Shown: positions 30,721 to 40,328 of the stretch, one piece after another
Layout of the letters: every line of letters starts with the position of its first letter
Numbering within the stretch: position 1 is the stretch's first letter
Assembly (NCBI GenBank): GCA_027923505.1
Contig: BROI01000022.1
Location: 496,001 to 560,000 of the forward strand
DNA: 64,000 nucleotides
From: Mayamaea pseudoterrestris
Taxonomy: Eukaryota
Reading direction: 5' to 3'
Program-made: the position numbers and the translations under genes
The notes under the pieces: generated by a model
Databases searched by the model: none
The model's input: only the letters and a program-made list of their open reading frames with translations
What the model was told of the DNA's origin: nothing

Positions 30721-31140
30721 AGAGTTGATTCTGCGAGTGCAATTGCTGGGACAATGTTCACCAGTCTCATAGCGTTAACTATGAGTTTCATATACAGTGA
30801 ATACAGTATACTTGCATTTAACGCCTACCGGTAGTCGCGACGAATGCGTCTTGCAGACTTGGCGGAAAGCAGATAGCTGAGGGCTCGCCCATTTTGGGTC
30901 GTGCGAGCCGTTGCAACGTCGTAACGCGACTGACAAATTTGCGCCCTCGACGAAATTCTGATCCAATCTCACTGCTGCCGGACCTCAAGGCCCTGAAGGA
31001 GACTGCGGCAACTTGTCCTTTTGCAGTGTCAAGCAGCTGTAACAAGCGTAGGAATTGAGCGAAAGATTTAGTTATTGCAAACTTTGTCGCAGGTTCTTGT
31101 TTCGTGTTTCGATTCCGATTGCCGACTGACCATCCTGACC

Positions 31141-32654
31141 ATGGAGTTGCCGATGAAAACAAGAGAGGCAAAGGCCGATTCAGCATTGCACCATCAGCAA
31201 CCAGCAAAGCAAAAGAGTTCAGGCACAAATTCTTCATTAGCGAAATGTGATTCGTTAGTGCTGTGGAACCCTTCGTTTCCAGATGTCCTTCCTACGCCTC
31301 TTGCTATAGCCAGCAGCAGCGTCGCACTCGTGCCGACAAACGTTTGGGGACTAGACTTTTTTGATGCTCAAGATTCTAAAATACCTGGCAGCAACAAACA
31401 TCGATCAACGGCAGATACTATTGTCACGTATCAGTCGGACCAAAGCGTCAGTTCACATTTCAAACCATGGACGCAAGCAATGATTCTCAGCAGTCGGCTG
31501 CCCCTACACCCTCAGCCACCGACGGACTGCGACGATAGCATTGGCTGTACAAGGAGGAAGGCGCTGCTTTACCGAGAGGAAGATGCTGATGAAGATGATT
31601 GCACTAACAGTCGCGCCATTGTGGCAAGCACCAGTTACGCTACCGATGTTTCGCAATCACACGTTCGAACGCCAATTGTCATTCTTCTCATGGACCCGGC
31701 GCAAAAGTCGTACGAGCTAATGCAGCTTTGGATCGACCCTCAGGTTGATAGTGTCGGAGACGTTATGCAGGCGATGCAAAAGCAGTTGCACGACAAGGAC
31801 GACTGGAAGACTGACTACGAAGGTTTGTTTCATATTCGCAACTCGCAATGTACGCAGCTCACTCACAATGTCCGCATGGACCAGTACAATGCACAGCCGT
31901 ATCAAGTCTATATTGCCAAGCCATGGAGCATGAATGTAAAGTTGGCGCAGCAACATGCCAGCGAGCTTGTGCACTTTCTACAGGAGCTTCAAGTACTGGA
32001 AGCTGGTCCAACTGAGCCGCCGCTGTGGCTTTCACAACAACCCCATACGCCAAACGCGATGACCGTGCGGCAGGACTCGGTCTTGCTGCTCAGCAGGCAA
32101 GCTCGCGCTCGCATCTTTGTATCCGATGGAATATTGACCCATTACCATGCATGTCAGTTTTTATCGTTTTGTCCGCCGTTTGAGCTGCCCGTTCAATCGC
32201 TCCTTTGCCTGGACGTTTTGGGTAATACTTTGGCGATTGGCAATGACGACAGTGAAAGCGTCTTTAGTGACGATGCAGAGCAACAACGCAAACCAAAGGT
32301 CGCGTCAAAGGTCTGCCACAAGGCGCATCAAGATGAACAAGCGAGCTTGGCAGTCTGCCACATGAAAGGCCAAGCAAAACCAAGCCCACAAGACAACGAC
32401 GACGGCTATTTAAAAATTGGGCATGTTGCTGGTCGAGCCGTCAACTTGATTTCGTCATTGACGGCGGAAGCTTGCCAACCAACTGCGCGACCTCGCTTAT
32501 GGAAGATTCAATGCGGAACAGCAATAGCAACAGTGACGACGACGATGATGTGTCCACAGCGGACATTTCGTATGCTTCCGCGTCCATGCCGCTGATGTAT
32601 AATCAATCACTGCAGACGATACAATGGACAAAACTAGATAATACAGAAATGTAA
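31141..32654 (+). CDS. Hypothetical protein; C-terminus probably continues after a 1-nt homopolymer frameshift near 32412-32416
   Basis: Globular-looking segment RTPIVILLMDPAQKSYELMQLWID..YEGLF..YIAKPW. The shifted frame ending at 32654 reads more like natural protein. Confidence 0.65.
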
Positions 32655-32687
32655 GCTACAAATAAGAATTCAAAAACTCTTTTCCAC

Positions 32688-35600
32688 TTAGTCTTCCCGC
32701 TGAGCGTCGCGTCGACTAATGTAATCGACTCTCTTACCGTCGTCAAGAAGAACGTCCCTGGCGTTCTCCAAGGCCTGGAATATCGTTTGAGCATCCTCGC
32801 TCTCGTTCTTGTCGGGGTCAAACAAATTAGCAAGTTTACGATATGATTCTTCAATGATTCCGACAGGAGTTTCAGTATTTACGTCCAGCAGCTCGAAGTA
32901 ACAAACTTCAGTATCGGCGAGGATCAAACGGATGCGAGCCATTTCCTTCTCTTGAATACTAGCCTTAATTTTGGCTGCCAAAGGTTCCTCCTTAGCAGAA
33001 TCATCTCCCTGCCACTTTCTTCGTACTCCAGCAAATGATTTCTCTAACCGCTTTCGTCGTTCACTGAGCATCTTCGCTTTTATGTTTTTGACACCCGACG
33101 AAAAGACTCGATTTGTGCCTTTCATCCCGTTGAGTTCCTCGAAAAATAACATGGCTTGTTTCTGTCTATCACCATCCAACATCGTCTCCAAGCATGTATG
33201 TGAACGATAGTGCAACTCTTCCTTCTCATTGACTGCCTCCAGTCGCTTTTTAAACTCATTTGTGGCCATCGCAGACCGTTTCTGATCTAGGTGCTTCCAG
33301 CGCTTTTCACCGTTAATAATGCCACGAATCTCGTCACCCGACAATCCAAGATCATTTGTAAGCTGCTTGGCATTGATAACCATACTGTAAGATCCGTCTG
33401 CACCTTGCCGTGCACACCGCCCCTTAATCTGAGTCTCCTCTGACGCATCTGAAGAGAAGAATGCTTGGATAACGTGGACACCTCCAGCTTGCAACATCGT
33501 CTTGTCTAGACATTTGAAGTCTGTCCCACGCCCAAAGTCGCGGATCATCAGCGTTATTGCGCCTCTTGTCGTCGCCTTTTGGAACAAAGTTGTACGCTCA
33601 TGCAAAGGAGCACTTTCCGTAATTGTTCTTGTCTTACTTTTGAGCACTTGCATATAGGACGACTCATAAAAATCTAACAACGCTCGTTTAGATTCAAAGA
33701 AGACCATGACGGGGCGGTCTACCTCCTCGAGACCTCGTCTTGTCATAGTACGGCGACGGTGGATTTCATGCTTCAATTCAAGAAAGTGGTCTTCTCTCTG
33801 GCTGCAAATAATAACATCTTTGGCAACGGAATGTGAGACTCCATTCTAGCATTGTATCACGATCTCTGCTTGCATGGGACAGTACTCACCGGTCGCCGAC
33901 TCTGGAGCAAAATCGAGTCTGTTTTCGCCAAACACAGATGGAATGCACGAATATTTGAATATGTCGTATCGATCTTCCAGCACGCAGCGCTCTTCCTTAC
34001 TAAGAGCAGAAAGAGTACCAGTGACACCAAGAATCGCATCATATTCAAATGGGATTTCGGCGTTTGACAAGCGAGCAATAGCAGGACACAGGTTCACCAT
34101 TGAGTTCATGGTTGCTTCGGTGACATTGCCGATTTCGCACTCCTTTATGTATGCAAAACTGCAAAATGAAGAACAATAGTGAAAGGCCAAACCGTCGAAC
34201 ATCTAGCGATAAAAATTAAATGGAGTCAGGGAATACATCAGTTTTTGTGAGAGTTTGTCAGTGGACGCGGCATGTCATGTCTCACCTTGTAGCCAAGTAA
34301 TCCATCGGATACAACATAGTCGGCTCCTATTCCATCCCTTAAACCCTTGGCCGAAGCAACTAGCGGTTTGATTACCTTCTTCAGAAGTGGGTGGGCAATA
34401 CTAGGAAATCCAGCGAGAACATTGGTCACCTCCTGCGACGCCAGCAGCGATGCAGTCGTCAAGTTGGATGAGTTCTGCCACACATGTTGAAACAAGCGTA
34501 CGATCGAGTCATTGCATAGATCTAATCCAAGGTTACGTTCAGATCCAAAAGAGTTTGGACCAAAAAATACGTCAACTTCATCGACAAGCAATACTCGAGG
34601 ACGTGTTTTGTCATTGGGAGCCAACTCCCGGGCGCCGTTGGCCGTGCCGGTGAAAGCCTTTCTTGCAAGCTCACAAAATCCTTCAATGGAATCTGTCATC
34701 AACTTGTCGATTGTACCATAGGATATGTAGTCTTCGACTTGAAATGCTTGAAACAAAGGTCGGAATGCAGCAATATCTCGATCACTTAGATATTTGCTGT
34801 AGCAAACGCAGCATACTTCGTAGTCCAGGAGTGCGAGCACAGTCGCTGTCACGCCTAGCACTACCGACTTGCCTTCGCCAGTTTTCAGCTCCAGCAAATG
34901 ATTTTGCAGTGCTCGTTGGTCCTCTTCAATCACATTCAACAAGGTCAAAATCGCCACGACTTGGGCGGGATGAGGCTTCATCAGAAAATTTGTTTTTGTT
35001 GTGGTCAGAGCAAAAGCATTGCTACTTTTTAGAGACCAATATGCGAATGTATGCGAAGACAACGCAATTACTTGAGCCTCATATGTCAAGGAATTATCCT
35101 TCGACAACTGCATAGTTGCTTGGGCCAAGTCCGCGAGACTGTCAGTCCTGACGGTTAAAGCCTGCGAATTCGCATTGGAGCTAAACCGGCTTCCAAGATG
35201 CGCAGTAATTATACTGACGTACAATTCTTCAAAGTCTTCATACATTGATCTCAGACGTGACGAGCTCTTGCTGCTCAGGCTTAGGCCACTGATTACATAA
35301 GATATATCCTGACCAGCGGTTGCATCGTTGAATGCCGCATGTACCGCACCCTCAAAGCATTTGTGATCGGTAAGCAACTGCTGGCCAATATGCCCATCAT
35401 CATCCTTATCAAACTTTTGGAGAGCAAGTGAAAGATCAAGGAGGAAAGTGGTATTCTCCGAAGCGGACGATGCCATCTCAATAAATTGATCGATGCTTCT
35501 GTCGATTGTTAGTCGCCAACATGGAACGTCGCGGCTAGCTGTTTTCAACAACACGAGACCATTGACCATATCATTAAATGGCAATGACAAACCAATGGAG

Positions 35601-38600
35601 ATGTAACAGTCAAGCGCTTCACGCGCCGACTGAAAAGTACCTTCGCGATAGGAAAGAGACAGACGAGCCAGAGTCGGTTGCACCCTCGTTAATGCCTTTT
35701 CGATTGACTGCAAATTTCCGGAGAGAGCATATATGCAGCTAAAATTAGCCTTGTTTGTTGGAAATTTAGCGCAAAGACACGTTAGCTCGCGTCCTGCAGC
35801 ATTGATCTCTGCTTCAACCTTCTGTACGACCAGCGGATACAGATCCAGCACCCTCGACCCTTCATCCATATGCTCCTTTAGCTCGTGGACGGTTTGAGCA
35901 GCAGTCATGATTGCTACGATATCCGCGTAAAAGGTCTCTCGGGCATCTTCGTTAACGCAGGCTAGAATTTCGTTGAAAGATAAGCCGTGGATCTCCTTTT
36001 CCAGCTGGACTACTTCTAGTGCAGCATCTTCTTGAAGAATCTCCAGCTTTGGCCATGTAATGAGGCATAATTGTAGAGCTTTTAGTTGATGAAAATATCG
36101 ATCGGAAAGAACGAAGCTAACATCAACATTGCAGAAGGACGCGAAAGTTGAATGCAGCTTCTCAGCGTTCTTGTACGCCGACAAAATTCGACCAAAGTTT
36201 CCAAAGCTTCGTTCACTCACTTCTTTTCTGGGAGTATCTTTTAAACTCCTGATACAGTCTGTGACCGCATTAAGCGCTTCACACAGATGTTTTTCGAAAG
36301 CAGTGCGATTTTTGAATGTAAACAGAGACTTCAAGAGGCTGGAGTCCTTTGGTAACTGAACAAATGCAAATAGGAGACAAAGGGCAGGATGGACGTCGTC
36401 GTGGCCCCTCAAAAGGGACATAAGTTGACTTAATGCATTGCCTGTTGCACTGAGGCGCTGGACGATCCATAGTGCTTGGTTTATCTGCCCATAAAAATGC
36501 CGAATCAATGCTTGCTGAGCGTTCGTCAGTTCAGAACGTGCAGTGTTCATACCAAACAAACTTCTCGCGTTATTCATAAACCCAGACATAACGCCAGACT
36601 TCTGTGTTTTGATGACTTCACACCAAAGGTCCCAGTGTTCCGGCTCACTTAATTCCACCAGCAGCTTTCCAGCATCTTCGTTCCCGCATTTGAGGCGATG
36701 TAGTAGCGAGTTTGCCGCCGAAGTTGCATCTTGTAATCCGCGAACAAGATTCTGCGCTTCTTCCGCCAATGCGTCATCCAGCAAAGAGTGCTTTGAGATG
36801 CTCAACGAAAGAGATTCTTGAATGCATGTGGCCTCCATATCGTCGAAGCCTTTCCATTTGACGATTGTTTGTAAGCCACGGCGCACACAGCAAAGCGTTG
36901 CCCCAATAACATCCGACTCTCGTTTTTTCATACTAATGTCAGCAGTCGACTCAACGATTTGGCCAAGTTTCTTTCCACACAGTTTTGTAATTCTTGCAAG
37001 GTAGAGCAGCGTGCATGTATCAAAGTCTTGTACTAGCTCTAGCCAACCCGATAAATTTGGGAAACAAACGCCTGGAGCTTTTAAAGTCTCCTCGCTCGAT
37101 GCGAGACGCGACAGAAGGAAGGCACGGGCACATCCAAGATACTCAAAGTCGATAGTCTCGCATGCTTCGAAACAGCGCTTAGTGTCAGCAAACCCGTGAC
37201 AGTCGCTGACAAACTTGCTCAGGGCAGATTCTGCTCTCTCGCTCGCCTTGCGCAATGATGTCATGATGAAACTAAAAACATCGTGATAAAACACATGGGT
37301 CCGCGACTCAACGATCCTCTCCCCGGCAAGAAAGTCGCTAAAATTAGCAGCTAGGTCAATGCAGGCTGCATTGTTGTCAACAATAATAGGAAAATGGTAT
37401 GGGTTGTTGCTAATTACCGCGGCGATGTCGGTAAGAGTATTCGTTACCCAAGCCACGCCCATGTCGATGTTTCGTGTCATGGCCGCTCTGACTGCCTCGT
37501 CCAAAGCTGTTCCTCCAAATGTAAGACTTAGAACCTTCAGTCGCAAGATTGAACTGAAAAGTAACTGCTGGCGCAAGCCAACATACTCTAACCCCTCGCT
37601 GCAAGCCTTCGCTGTATCCGCGAGCAGTGCATCGGTCAATGTTGCGCTCACCAACCGGATAACAGTCGAGAGCCTATTTCGGGCAGCAGTGATTCCACAA
37701 ATATCTAACAACGGAGCGAATAGAAGCAACCCGTCAAAAGTTGTCTTGACCTGCATAACATAATGCGCAAAATCATCATTGAATCTACCGAGGACGTCTC
37801 GGGTCTCGCTAAGCAGAACGTTCGAGCAACGATCGAATGCGAAAGTCACAGCCGACGTTGCACGGATCCAAAAAGGGTTAATGTCGGGCATTGCAGTTGC
37901 GAGGCGATCAAACAGTGCCATTAATTCCAGAGCTCGAGGGAAGTCGCGTTCCTCCAACGAAGCCGAAACTTGTTCCAAAAAGTCGTAGAGTTGCAGATGC
38001 AATTTTTCCATCGCCATTTTCGACTTGCGATCCTTTATGCTCAGGCGAGGATTGTCAATACAGTTTAAATTCCCTTTCCATAGGCTGCGCAACAGGTCCT
38101 CGTAATTCCCCTCTTCCAAATCGACGCATCGAGCGCACGGAGTCGTTTTAACAATCATATCGTGGACAAAACTCGAAAGCATCTCATTAGCGGCGTCAGC
38201 ACCACAGCGCTCCCTGAAGAATTTAGTCAGCTTTAAGTGAAGACGCTTGGCGTCTTTTGGTCCGCACTTCGTGAAGACATACCGGAAAGGAGCAAAACCA
38301 CCGGATTGCATACCGTCAGCAAAGATACGATTGTACGCGTCGAGTGCGTCCGACAATAATTTGCAACGACCCGTTGTCAGTTCAGGAACGCTCATTACCA
38401 AGACCGGTCGTACGCTCTTAGCTTTGCGGAGAGCAGAAATAATGCCTGTCTGGTTTGCTATTTCCATCTCCACCCCAGAGGTGTCGAGGAGTCCGGGGAC
38501 GTCACAAATTACAAGTGCCTCTCCATCAATGCTCGTTTGCACAGCTTGAATCGTGCTAGTTACTGATGTTGTACCGGACGCAACGGCGAAGCCTGCAAGA

Positions 38601-39774
38601 TTGGGGGGAGGATCTCGTGGTAGAAAGTGATCGTCACCGTCGGCGTCTTCATACTCAAAGCCTACACCGCAAAGATGCAGGAGAGTCGAAGTCTTTCCTG
38701 AACCCGTGTTTCCAAGCAAAAGCAAGATGTCTCGCCCTTCGATTTCGTCCGCGGCAACCTTGTTCTTTTCCAACAAGATGCAAAGCTTTGTAAGGTCCAC
38801 CACGTCCTTTTGTGCAGCATGGCTTTTGCCTCTGCTATCGCTGTAATTGATCTCGTCAGATATGGCAGAGCCGTCAAAATCCAAAGCGCCGCCTGATTGT
38901 TCTACCTCCATTGCAACAGTCACTGACTCTTCTCCATTGCGTTCCGAAGTTCCCGCCGCTTCCCAATCCATCTCACTTGAAACTGTATGTTGCTTGTCAG
39001 GCGAACCATCAGCGAGAACAGTGACTTGCGGAACCATTTCTCCGCATGGCGAAAGTTTCGCACGACAGTAGTCTTCTTTGACGTCCATGCCGTCGTATTT
39101 AGCAGGCTTGCCGATCTGTCGGTGAATCAAAGAACTTTCCACCTGGTGGCCCGCTTCAGCGAAAGCACGCTTCGCCGTGACATCGTTTGTAAATTGCTTG
39201 GTCACCATAGCCGCATTCCAGTGTCCTTCCAAAGTAATTTTCTCGCCATCAAACGGGCTCGCAATTGCAGCACCACTATCGCTCGGCCCATCTGCATGTT
39301 TACTGTTTGGCGCAGCTCCATCGCCGACTCCATGTACAAACGGAGATTCTTTATAGCAGTATTGACTGTGATAGTTTCCTTCCTGTTTAGGGGATTCTCG
39401 TCATCGATCGCACCTCCCGAATCGGTGTGATCTCCGGATGTTGCTACCGGTAAGCCAGATTCCTTGCCCGCAGCCAACGCGCCAGGAAGGAGCACCTCGC
39501 CCACCAAATTCGCACCGCCATCCGTCGCATCACCCAGCTTGACTGTACCCGCAAACTTGACACCAACTGCCAAATCATCAGAAATTTTGGTGTCTTCCAA
39601 CGACGAGATCGCTCCATTATTCGCCGAGCTTACTTGAACTCCCAGCAAACCTTCCTCCATGCTTGAGGATGCATCGCCAGCAGCATCCATCATATCAACA
39701 TCCTCCGCATCCGACGAGATCACGACTGGCTCGTCGTAGGAGCTCCAGCTCTTGTCGTCTTCAATCTCAACCAT
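32688..39774 (-). CDS. Giant (~2,300 aa) GTPase + SecA-like SF2 ATPase + degenerate J-domain protein; exons 39774-34286 (frameshift near 39390), 34202-33890 and 33817-32688
   Basis: GTPase G1 LLLGNTGSGKT, G3 DVPG and G4-like FTK. SecA-like PHPAQVVAIL, ELKTGEGKS, LSDRD, LVDEVD, GVTGT, FGRGTDF, GGVHVI and ETQIKGRCARQG. C-terminal J-like YFELLDV..YRKLANLFDPDKN..F..LENARDVL. Both introns restore the frame. Confidence 0.85.
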
Positions 39775-40328
39775 GTTGGAACTGCTAAATACGAATAATG
39801 CATGAGCGTGTGAGCTGAACCTTACCACGACGATAACTCAAGCCTCAAGCTCTGCGAATTGATTTCGAAAAACACAACCACCGGTCGAAAACTTACCTTT
39901 GATTGCTCTTGCTACTTTTTTCTTTATTATTACTATATCACTTGCTGCCTATACAAATAAAAAGCTCCTACGTCCTTCTACTTGTGTGCGTGGTCGCAGC
40001 CGTGGACGCAGCGCAACGTTTACGGCAAAACCGGTGCGTGCTTCACTTGAAAACCTGCACAATGGTGCTTTGCAGGGCTAATAGTCGGCCAAGTAGAGCT
40101 TCGCAAAAGATGGGAAAGCTAGTAATACACAGAGTCTCGCACTCTCGACAGTCTCTCATGGATCTCACTTTGACGGCAGCGTGTGGCGCACTTCATAAAG
40201 ATCTTCATTTTAGAACCGCTGTGATACTGGTGGATGTCACAACTGAAACGTCGTACTGGTTTTGCGTGATGACGCATCCTTGCAGACCGCAAAACGACGA
40301 AAGCAGCGCGCGGCTGAGGAATTCAACC

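Follow-up and report, generated by a model that had tools for sequence, protein, structure and literature searches.

The stretch of DNA analysed here, called the window below, comprises 64,000 nucleotides (nt) of the diatom Mayamaea pseudoterrestris (assembly GCA_027923505.1, contig BROI01000022.1, positions 496,001 to 560,000), and all coordinates refer to positions within it. Its minus strand holds four stop-to-stop open frames between 39837 and 32688, where a spliced, transcribed nuclear gene lies. The product combines, in this order, a disordered acidic N-terminus, a GTPase (G) domain resembling the GIMAP/AIG1 proteins, about 900 amino acids (aa) of helices, then an ATPase of the SecA type and, at the C-terminus, a J domain. 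SecA is the secretion motor of bacteria and plastids. By sequence comparison, the diatom gene belongs to a large, distinct and unstudied clade in which SecA-type motors are fused to GIMAP-like GTPases. An initial annotation, made from the letters alone, had proposed the order GTPase, helices, SecA-like motor and J domain; Pfam and structure models agree with it, and all motifs that it named were found on the minus strand within 3 nt of their assigned places. Overall, its observation proved largely correct and its interpretation correct in part.

The stretch is contained in four public runs of one study (X1 to X4), none of which is recorded as RNA. Contigs from X2 and X4 skip canonical GT..AG introns and were for this reason treated as RNA-like; those from X1 and X3 read through the same introns and were treated as DNA-like. 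In the order of transcription, the features of the gene are the following.

39782..39896, minus strand: intron in the 5' untranslated region, 115 nt, GT..AG (joint 39781->39897, one X2 contig)
39202..39774, minus strand: upstream acidic open reading frame (ORF), frame A, 190 codons plus TGA (39204-39202)
39205..39400, minus strand: frame-switch zone, including a run of four C at 39393-39390
34286..39208, minus strand: exon 1 of the main ORF from its first in-frame ATG (MVTKQ...), with the donor at 34285 in X2 and X4
38021..38809, minus strand: GIMAP/AIG1-like G domain (Pfam, model, structural matches, motifs)
35291..38020, minus strand: all-helical region of about 900 aa (model)
33093..35290, minus strand: SecA-like motor, including two introns (model, Foldseek, VIA-align, profile)
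34203..34285, minus strand: intron, phase 0, 83 nt, GT..AG (joint 34202->34286, X2 with a shorter side of 255 and X4 with one of 119)
33818..33889, minus strand: intron, 72 nt, GT..AG (joint 33817->33890, X2 with a shorter side of 47)
32901..33092, minus strand: helical, coiled-coil-like linker from motor to J domain (model helices 736-759 and 771-793, low-confidence loop 758-771)
32721..32900, minus strand: J domain (Pfam DnaJ, model)
32688..32690, minus strand: stop codon (from the translation)

Both coding introns reproduce the annotated protein (P0001) exactly, exon 1 ending at 34286. X2 contigs tile 33890-39352 with small gaps between them, and all coding exons are joined in spliced RNA-like contigs, which answers the earlier question of separate genes in favour of one gene. 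Since the GTPase and the first nucleotide-binding domain (NBD1) of the motor share one uninterrupted exon and the second (NBD2) shares the last exon with the J domain, separate genes are very unlikely. The intron in the 5' untranslated region, directly upstream of an ATG at 39774, is weakly supported by a single X2 contig with a shorter side of 25 letters. As sequenced, the main ORF encodes 2,121 aa from the ATG at 39208. Its best database match, 'hypothetical protein MPSEU_000923500 [Mayamaea pseudoterrestris]', is 100% identical, has a length of 1,874 aa and begins with MEIANQ (38450-38467) inside the G domain, downstream of the G1 and G3 motifs. For genome annotation this means that the public gene model is truncated within the G domain, 247 in-frame residues including the P-loop being missing. 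By its sequence the product is soluble: no 19-aa window was hydrophobic enough for a membrane helix, except one core strand of the motor, and no signal-peptide-like or targeting N-terminus was found at either candidate start.

The motor begins with N-terminal helices, continues through NBD1 (TGEGKS 34882-34865, DEVD 34582-34571), an insert, the motif GVTGTL (34028-34011) and NBD2 (GRGTDF 33533-33516, QIKGRCARQG 33431-33402) and ends in a long scaffold-like helix. ATPase motifs I, II, III, V and VI are intact. The Pfam family SecA_DEAD matches at E 8.3e-10 (38.8 bits, cut-off 24.6) and P-loop_SecA at 16.3 bits, below its cut-off of 27; motifs V and VI of NBD2 align to SecA and the fold matches. 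The last 869 aa were modelled with AlphaFold2 from an alignment of 36 family sequences (A2), with a mean predicted local distance difference test (pLDDT) of 85.1 and a predicted template modelling score of 0.79. When this model was compared with the PDB by Foldseek, SecA or SecA2 filled all 28 rows listed to rank 35 (E 1.1e-18 to 4.7e-10), and DinG came next after SecA at 4.6e-6. In VIA-align, 28 entries for SecA reached Z 19.3-25.8 over 450-557 aligned residues (547 for the top match at Z 25.8), and the next family, the DEAD-box proteins, reached Z 16.8 or less over about 340. Model residues 55-735 correspond to SecA residues ~5-815. An isolated SecA motor without the insert aligns over 390 residues, compared with 547-557 for full SecA. 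The roughly 200 residues aligned beyond the two RecA cores fit SecA-specific parts.

The sequence profile points in the same direction. Against sequences of solved structures the A2 profile retrieved SecA2 (1.5e-13) and SecA (~1e-12) and no other family over the motor; the other matches below 0.01, among them ZorA and designed helical proteins, came only from helical N-terminal parts of other rows and were set aside. Between motif II (DEVD) and motif III (GVTGTL), where SecA has its preprotein-binding domain, the diatom protein carries an insert of about 150 aa with 12 nearly invariant columns across the 36 sequences (Y379, I386, Y388, D392, T403, A406, Y407, E410, G432, S435, A437 and P440). 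NBD2 is followed by a 42-residue helix (model residues 666-707) and further helices, and the alignment ranges reach SecA residues ~760-815, which renders doubtful the earlier statement that a canonical SecA C-terminal scaffold is lacking. By its model, the motor is SecA-like beyond the RecA cores.

A comparison with canonical SecA was made with sequences from five bacterial genomes that also hold members of the giant family, from which both canonical SecA and the other SecA_DEAD genes were taken. On a profile of the family motor, family members scored 329-744 bits, other bacterial SecA_DEAD proteins 95-160 and canonical SecA 43-74. In a tree of 58 rows (quick IQ-TREE run under LG+G4, supported by the Shimodaira-Hasegawa-like approximate likelihood ratio test, SH-aLRT, only, with 23 of the 55 inner branches starred), four canonical SecA sequences split from all others (SH-aLRT 100), the remaining bacterial SecA_DEAD proteins formed a grade and the giant family formed one clade (SH-aLRT 100) on a stem of 1.51. 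Within it, seven rows from diatoms or diatom-like records make up a clade (99), where Mayamaea groups with P0022 and P0024 (97). Some bacterial members branch close to the base of the family, and others sit inside groups of eukaryotes; transfers between eukaryotes and bacteria took place, in a direction that this quick tree leaves unsettled.

By these measures the motor is not a canonical SecA but part of a separate, strongly supported clade, an outcome that agrees with the initial annotation, where clustering with canonical SecA had been named as a refuting result. With SecA and SecA2 it has in common the motif wording (TGEGK-, DEVD, -TGT-, GRGTD-, Q--GR--RQG), the best structural match (Z 19-26 over ~450-557 residues), an insert of similar position and the long helix after NBD2. 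Unlike them, it is only ~15-20% identical and set apart on a long stem, it forms part of a cytosolic protein of 2,121 aa, in which a GTPase and a helical stalk precede it, and the protein ends in a J domain, not in a SecA tail. It has no known link to a SecY channel.

The G domain carries the motifs G1 (GNTGSGKT 38713-38690), G3 (DVPG 38503-38492) and a G4-like FTK (38275-38261). A model of 1,200 aa, built on an alignment with a query of this length (A4), has a pLDDT of 70.9 and is confident over residues 33-430, which comprise the G domain (33-295, pLDDT mostly 77-96) and a helical extension. Foldseek retrieved GIMAP7 (1.7e-5), GBP1 (9e-5), GIMAP1, GIMAP2, GIMAP5 and Toc34, and VIA-align ranked GIMAP7 (Z 14.2, 203 residues aligned, root-mean-square deviation 3.7) and GIMAP2 (Z 13.9) before GTPBP6 (12.4), Toc34 (12.3) and HflX (12.2). 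Conserved across the family are the motifs GxxGxGK[ST], S-x-T, DxPGFxD[TS] and FT[KRH]. G1, G2 and G3 are all present in the diatom domain; where AIG1/GIMAP GTPases have a G4 of the FTxxD type, it has FTKCGPKD, and the Asp is not conserved in the family. GIMAP/AIG1 and Toc34/33 share with the diatom domain the top structural matches, the DxPGxxDT and FT[KRH] motifs and a weak Pfam AIG1 match (19.5 bits in the ortholog P0018). Unlike a GIMAP, it stays below the Pfam cut-off, lies about 2 Z above HflX-type GTPases and is not a small stand-alone protein; it is AIG1/GIMAP-like and not a certified member of the AIG1/GIMAP family. The confident helical extension directly behind the G domain recalls GBP1 and dynamin-like stalk GTPases, but these rank below GIMAP with a very large deviation, and the G motifs are AIG1-like; one family member, P0066, has a true GBP domain. 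A search for small relatives of the G domain, in proteins of 154-492 aa, found none among 1,460 candidates at E <= 0.001, with limited sensitivity. A protein atlas search gave only leads below 0.9, to MMR_HSR1 and AIG1 clusters. A predicted complex of two G-domain copies with GTP and Mg scored 0.22 against a mark of 0.32.

The region of ~900 aa between the G domain and the motor is helical throughout in the model, which confirms the long helical linker of the initial annotation (given there as ~1,000 aa). It is confident beside the GTPase and beside the motor, where model residues 880-1190 have a pLDDT of 79-98 for most ten-residue blocks. Its middle is unalignable across the family, and model residues 464-720 stay below a pLDDT of 50, though helical. 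At the other end of the protein, Pfam DnaJ recognises the J domain (E 2.7e-10, 40.6 bits, cut-off 27.8), the four terminal model helices have a pLDDT of 82-96 for most blocks and the closest solved sequences are J domains.

With the motor as query, 288 proteins were found at E <= 0.001 among 8,000 scored candidates. An exhaustive scan of 1.84 billion cluster representatives returned 3,117 at E <= 0.001, 1,460 at <= 1e-10 and 664 at <= 1e-30; its query included the J domain, so that the weaker bins also contain J-domain proteins. At E <= 1e-30 the family comprises at least 664 clusters at 50% identity. The diatom matches are P0018 (MMETSP, 47% identity), P0021 from Seminavis robusta, P0023 from Thalassiosira exigua, P0019, P0022 and P0024, and four of the six diatom orthologs scanned have a C-terminal DnaJ, the models of the other two ending early. 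Named matches outside the diatoms come from Rotaria, Adineta, Brachionus, Hexamita inflata, Reticulomyxa, Heterostelium, Arcella, Blepharisma, Monosiga and Cymbomonas; none named as Phaeodactylum or T. pseudonana is among the best 120 of the 288. The patchy distribution and, for some lineages, the expansion that had been foreseen are borne out among the matches listed.

The same G domain is carried by 125 of 249 stored family proteins, in keeping with the suggestion of an uncharacterised module with two nucleoside triphosphatases (NTPases). The motor is complete in 224 stored proteins, 184 of which have at least 150 aa after it. A divergent VWA-like tail of about 300 aa follows in 169 of the 184, and a D-x-[TS]-x-S-M motif occurs in 141. 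VWA-type Pfam matches were obtained in four of six short members scanned, one of them above the cut-off. A profile from Monosiga-type VWA tails found only nine proteins; the common tail, found with the tail of a family member as query, is a more divergent VWA. It is absent from the Mayamaea protein and from P0019, P0021, P0023 and P0024, all among the 15 of 184 without it. Other end domains are Jacalin with GBP, C2, ankyrin and U-box, and a J domain also occurs in mid-protein. The giant GTPase-SecA-like-VWA proteins found in rotifers, Hexamita, Reticulomyxa, dictyostelids, Monosiga, Legionellales and Chlamydiae, which databases name 'SecA family profile domain-containing protein' or 'Helicase-related protein', have the same G domain and motor (E 1e-90 to 1e-114) and fall in one clade with the diatom protein, but the diatom clade has a coiled coil and a J domain in place of the VWA-like tail, as expected from the swappable C-terminal output of the initial annotation.

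Among 185,579 prokaryotic species genomes, 332 pattern matches led to 38 confirmed stretches in 35 loci. Twenty of these loci belong to Gammaproteobacteria, Legionellales, Legionella, Aquirickettsiella or unclassified Pseudomonadota, nine to Chlamydiae, one to Wolbachia, one to an alphaproteobacterium and four to others; by profile score, 21 of the 35 are true family members. The five comparison genomes (G001-G005, with loci L042, L044-L047 and L050-L055), from Chlamydiae, Legionellales-like Gammaproteobacteria and Wolbachia, hold a normal SecA and up to six further SecA_DEAD matches in open frames of 1,257-3,913 aa, two of the six in G003 scoring below the family cut-off. Locus L028, from a gammaproteobacterial metagenome-assembled genome, encodes two tandem SecA-like motors in one protein (ORF residues 509-984 and 1382-1855).

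In the literature, a passage in PMC3482391 names GIMAP-type GTPase and SecA-like domains in Amoebophilus effectors, one in PMC4256840 places Legionella fallonii lfa2470 [SecA DEAD-like] among eukaryote-like transferred genes, both in passing, and PMC4452313 concerns bacterial secondary SecA_DEAD proteins. A full-text search of a paper library turned up no work devoted to the eukaryotic family.

It is conceivable, and our preferred though tentative reading, that the protein is a nucleotide-gated machine for remodelling or extracting proteins, in which a GTP-gated motor hands its clients to Hsp70. Like GIMAPs and other GTPases that dimerise, the G domain would switch assembly on and off with GTP, and the helical region would serve as a stalk transmitting this switch to the motor. 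Driven by ATP, the SecA-like motor would clamp a polypeptide client and pull on it, either in the cytosol or at the surface of a membrane. The C-terminal module would then set the outcome: in most family members a client grip of the VWA type, with a metal ion-dependent adhesion site (MIDAS), and in the diatom clade a J domain, through which Hsp70 would be loaded onto the client. As an analogy only, Midasin/Rea1 and the MoxR-VWA systems also combine a motor ATPase, a long linker and a client-gripping MIDAS/VWA domain; their motor is of the AAA+ type, they have no GTPase and no homology is implied. A large clade of SecA-type motors that work within giant eukaryotic proteins of the cytosol, each behind a GTPase of the immune type, would widen the uses of this motor class. 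A wider proposal is rather unlikely, namely that the family is an undescribed class of eukaryotic cytosolic machines in which a GIMAP-like switch gates a SecA-type motor that extracts target proteins or pulls them apart, with interchangeable outputs (VWA, J with Hsp70, U-box, lectin), and which has been exchanged repeatedly between intracellular bacteria and their hosts; its targets would possibly be pathogen or effector assemblies or membrane-bound complexes. On this proposal the diatom branch would be the first link of a SecA-type motor to the Hsp70 system.

Several points weigh against the remodelling machine. For the G domain, Pfam AIG1 gives E 2.5e-4 and 20.9 bits, below the cut-off of 27, and GIMAP is only marginally closer than HflX, GTPBP6 and Toc34 (Z 14.2 versus 12.2-12.4). 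For the motor, none of the Pfam families for the SecA preprotein-binding domain or the wing and scaffold matched at E <= 0.01, and the preprotein-binding-like and scaffold-like assignments follow from position, size and alignment ranges, not from a per-residue alignment. SecA is moreover related to DEAD-box helicases, and databases label family members 'helicase-related'. The polypeptide as the load of the motor is presumed, and the clients could be foreign, as in defence, or the cell's own, as in quality control. A J-protein needs its HPD motif for the stimulation of Hsp70, and in this haplotype the HPD position reads DPD (GAC 32819-32817), so that activation of Hsp70 may be reduced; the HPD is present in five relatives (P0019, P0021, P0023, P0024 and P0137). 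The ancestral-looking start of the protein is out of frame, which may lower translation efficiency. Finally, no experiment on any family member was found in the literature.

A different emphasis would make the protein a dedicated innate-immune (conflict) NTPase that senses or attacks viral or bacterial components, its variable ends being sensors or effectors, and that has been copied by intracellular bacteria as a means of interfering with it. This concerns its role and can overlap with the remodelling mechanism; a defence role as such is plausible, and the dedicated form is unlikely but deserves consideration. Among 120 listed matches there are at least nine from Hexamita inflata, 11 from Rotaria, six from Adineta and five from Reticulomyxa, versus one each for three diatoms. 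The end domains are shuffled (Jacalin with GBP, C2, ankyrin, U-box, VWA, J), the G domain is GIMAP-like and the prokaryotic relatives occur almost only in intracellular associates of eukaryotes, to which the effector and transferred-gene entries for Amoebophilus and lfa2470 may be added. A conflict between hosts and symbionts is also indicated by the patchy spread, the expansions and the occurrence of the family in Legionellales, Chlamydiae and Wolbachia. A second haplotype (X1, X2 and partly X4) also differs at 16 sites within the 120 nt of 39006-39125, with no indels; of the 15 codons concerned, 13 encode another residue. However, this diverged stretch encodes part of the disordered N-terminus, where relaxed constraint explains the changes equally well, and each named diatom species is represented by one match among those listed, and the orthologs, alike in architecture, fall into a single clade, which looks like the pattern of an ordinary conserved gene.

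An SF2 (superfamily 2) helicase or translocase dependent on nucleic acid, such as a RIG-I-like sensor or a remodeller of ribonucleoproteins, with the GTPase as the driver of assembly and the J or VWA domain as a signalling output, is doubtful on the evidence of the motor. DEAD-box proteins do match the two RecA-like domains (Z 15-17), the Pfam search shows weak signals for Helicase_C and ResIII and several sources name family members 'helicase', yet SecA scores far higher than any helicase and over ~200 more residues, it is the only solved family that the sequence profile finds over the motor and the motifs follow SecA and not the DEAD-box proteins (e.g., TGEGKS and QxxGRxxRQG).

The gene might, less probably still, be losing its function in this strain, a 1-nt loss having cut off the ancestral start and the catalytic His of the J domain having been lost, so that little or no active protein is made. 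This possibility turns on the N-terminus, where the initial annotation had assumed a single product of ~2,300 aa with an acidic beginning. An acidic ORF does exist (21% D/E in its first 130 aa), but its frame differs from that of the main ORF, where the open frame starts at 39400 and the first ATG lies at 39208, and the product as sequenced has 2,121 aa. A gain of 1 nt at any of the 196 positions in 39400-39205 would create a single frame of 2,310 codons from 39774. No joint in 39200-39400 is reported in the contigs, and no indel relative to the window in 39205-39400 was seen in those of X1, X2 and X3; an unbroken X2 RNA-like record (record 13) spans 38885-39352, and X1 and X3 contigs cover the remainder of 39200-39400. 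For an intron joining the two frames, many GT..AG pairs of fitting length would keep the frame open, but the contigs show no such joint. A codon-usage score trained on the big exon is coding-like for the upstream frame between 39774 and ~39350, and for the main frame beyond that point. The ortholog P0022, the closest full-length one in the tree, likewise begins with MVEI and an acidic stretch, and in our reading the acidic start is probably ancestral and out of frame in this strain. The N-terminal 411 aa found nothing significant in a sequence search against solved structures. At window position 39573, inside the acidic ORF, X1, X2 and X3 carry an in-frame insertion of 3 nt (ATC).

Loss of function would account for a frame break at the point where the codon-usage signal switches frames and for DPD in place of the HPD of the five relatives, and the upstream ORF of 190 codons would probably hinder translation of the main one. 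On the other hand, the frame of 2,121 codons has no break and keeps every NTPase motif intact, transcripts of the gene are present and properly spliced, and the second haplotype shows no indel either. In the arrangement ATGGTGA (39208-39202) the stop of the upstream ORF follows one base after the main ATG, a near-overlap that could allow termination and re-initiation; recoding or a further isoform are other ways by which the main ORF might be reached.

Least credible, to the point of being highly improbable despite the SecA fold, is a SecA-type preprotein translocase of an organelle or the endoplasmic reticulum, or else a set of separate genes misread as one, given a motor outside the canonical SecA clade, the 43-74 bits of canonical SecA on the family profile against 329-744 for members, no signal-peptide-like N-terminus at either candidate start, exons joined in RNA-like contigs with GTPase and NBD1 in one of them, and orthologs of the same architecture; the initial annotation had likewise excluded the plastid translocase.

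The neighbours of the gene in the window are a kinesin, GET4, a PPR protein, cytochrome c1, Cmc1, NDUFA12, an NAD(P)HX dehydratase and a PUA protein. Housekeeping surroundings had been described correctly, but the accompanying idea of an accessory insertion does not hold: the gene has spliceosomal introns, an unremarkable guanine-cytosine content (0.46-0.50, within the window's range) and diatom orthologs (Seminavis robusta, Thalassiosira exigua and others) in one clade, and it is therefore an ordinary resident of the diatom genome. The position of the intron 33889-33818 hints at being shared among diatom-like relatives, as environmental ORFs end at the corresponding point (P0055, P0073, P0077, P0096, P0114, P0124, P0157, P0164, P0168, P0170, P0173 and P0219) and P0137 begins there.

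Towards the 3' end of the gene, a DNA-like X1 contig has 32816-33349 replaced by a block of the same length that is too diverged to be placed at 95% identity. The block begins right at the DPD codon and covers the post-motor linker and the edge of the J domain, so the other haplotype may differ at that codon. In the same contig, 130 nt of 32608-32739 are replaced by 122 other letters, and X1 over 32608-33349, a span that includes the 3' end, represents a very diverged allele or copy. On the plus strand, an open frame of 507 aa without a Pfam family (31072-32592) converges with the 3' end of the gene.

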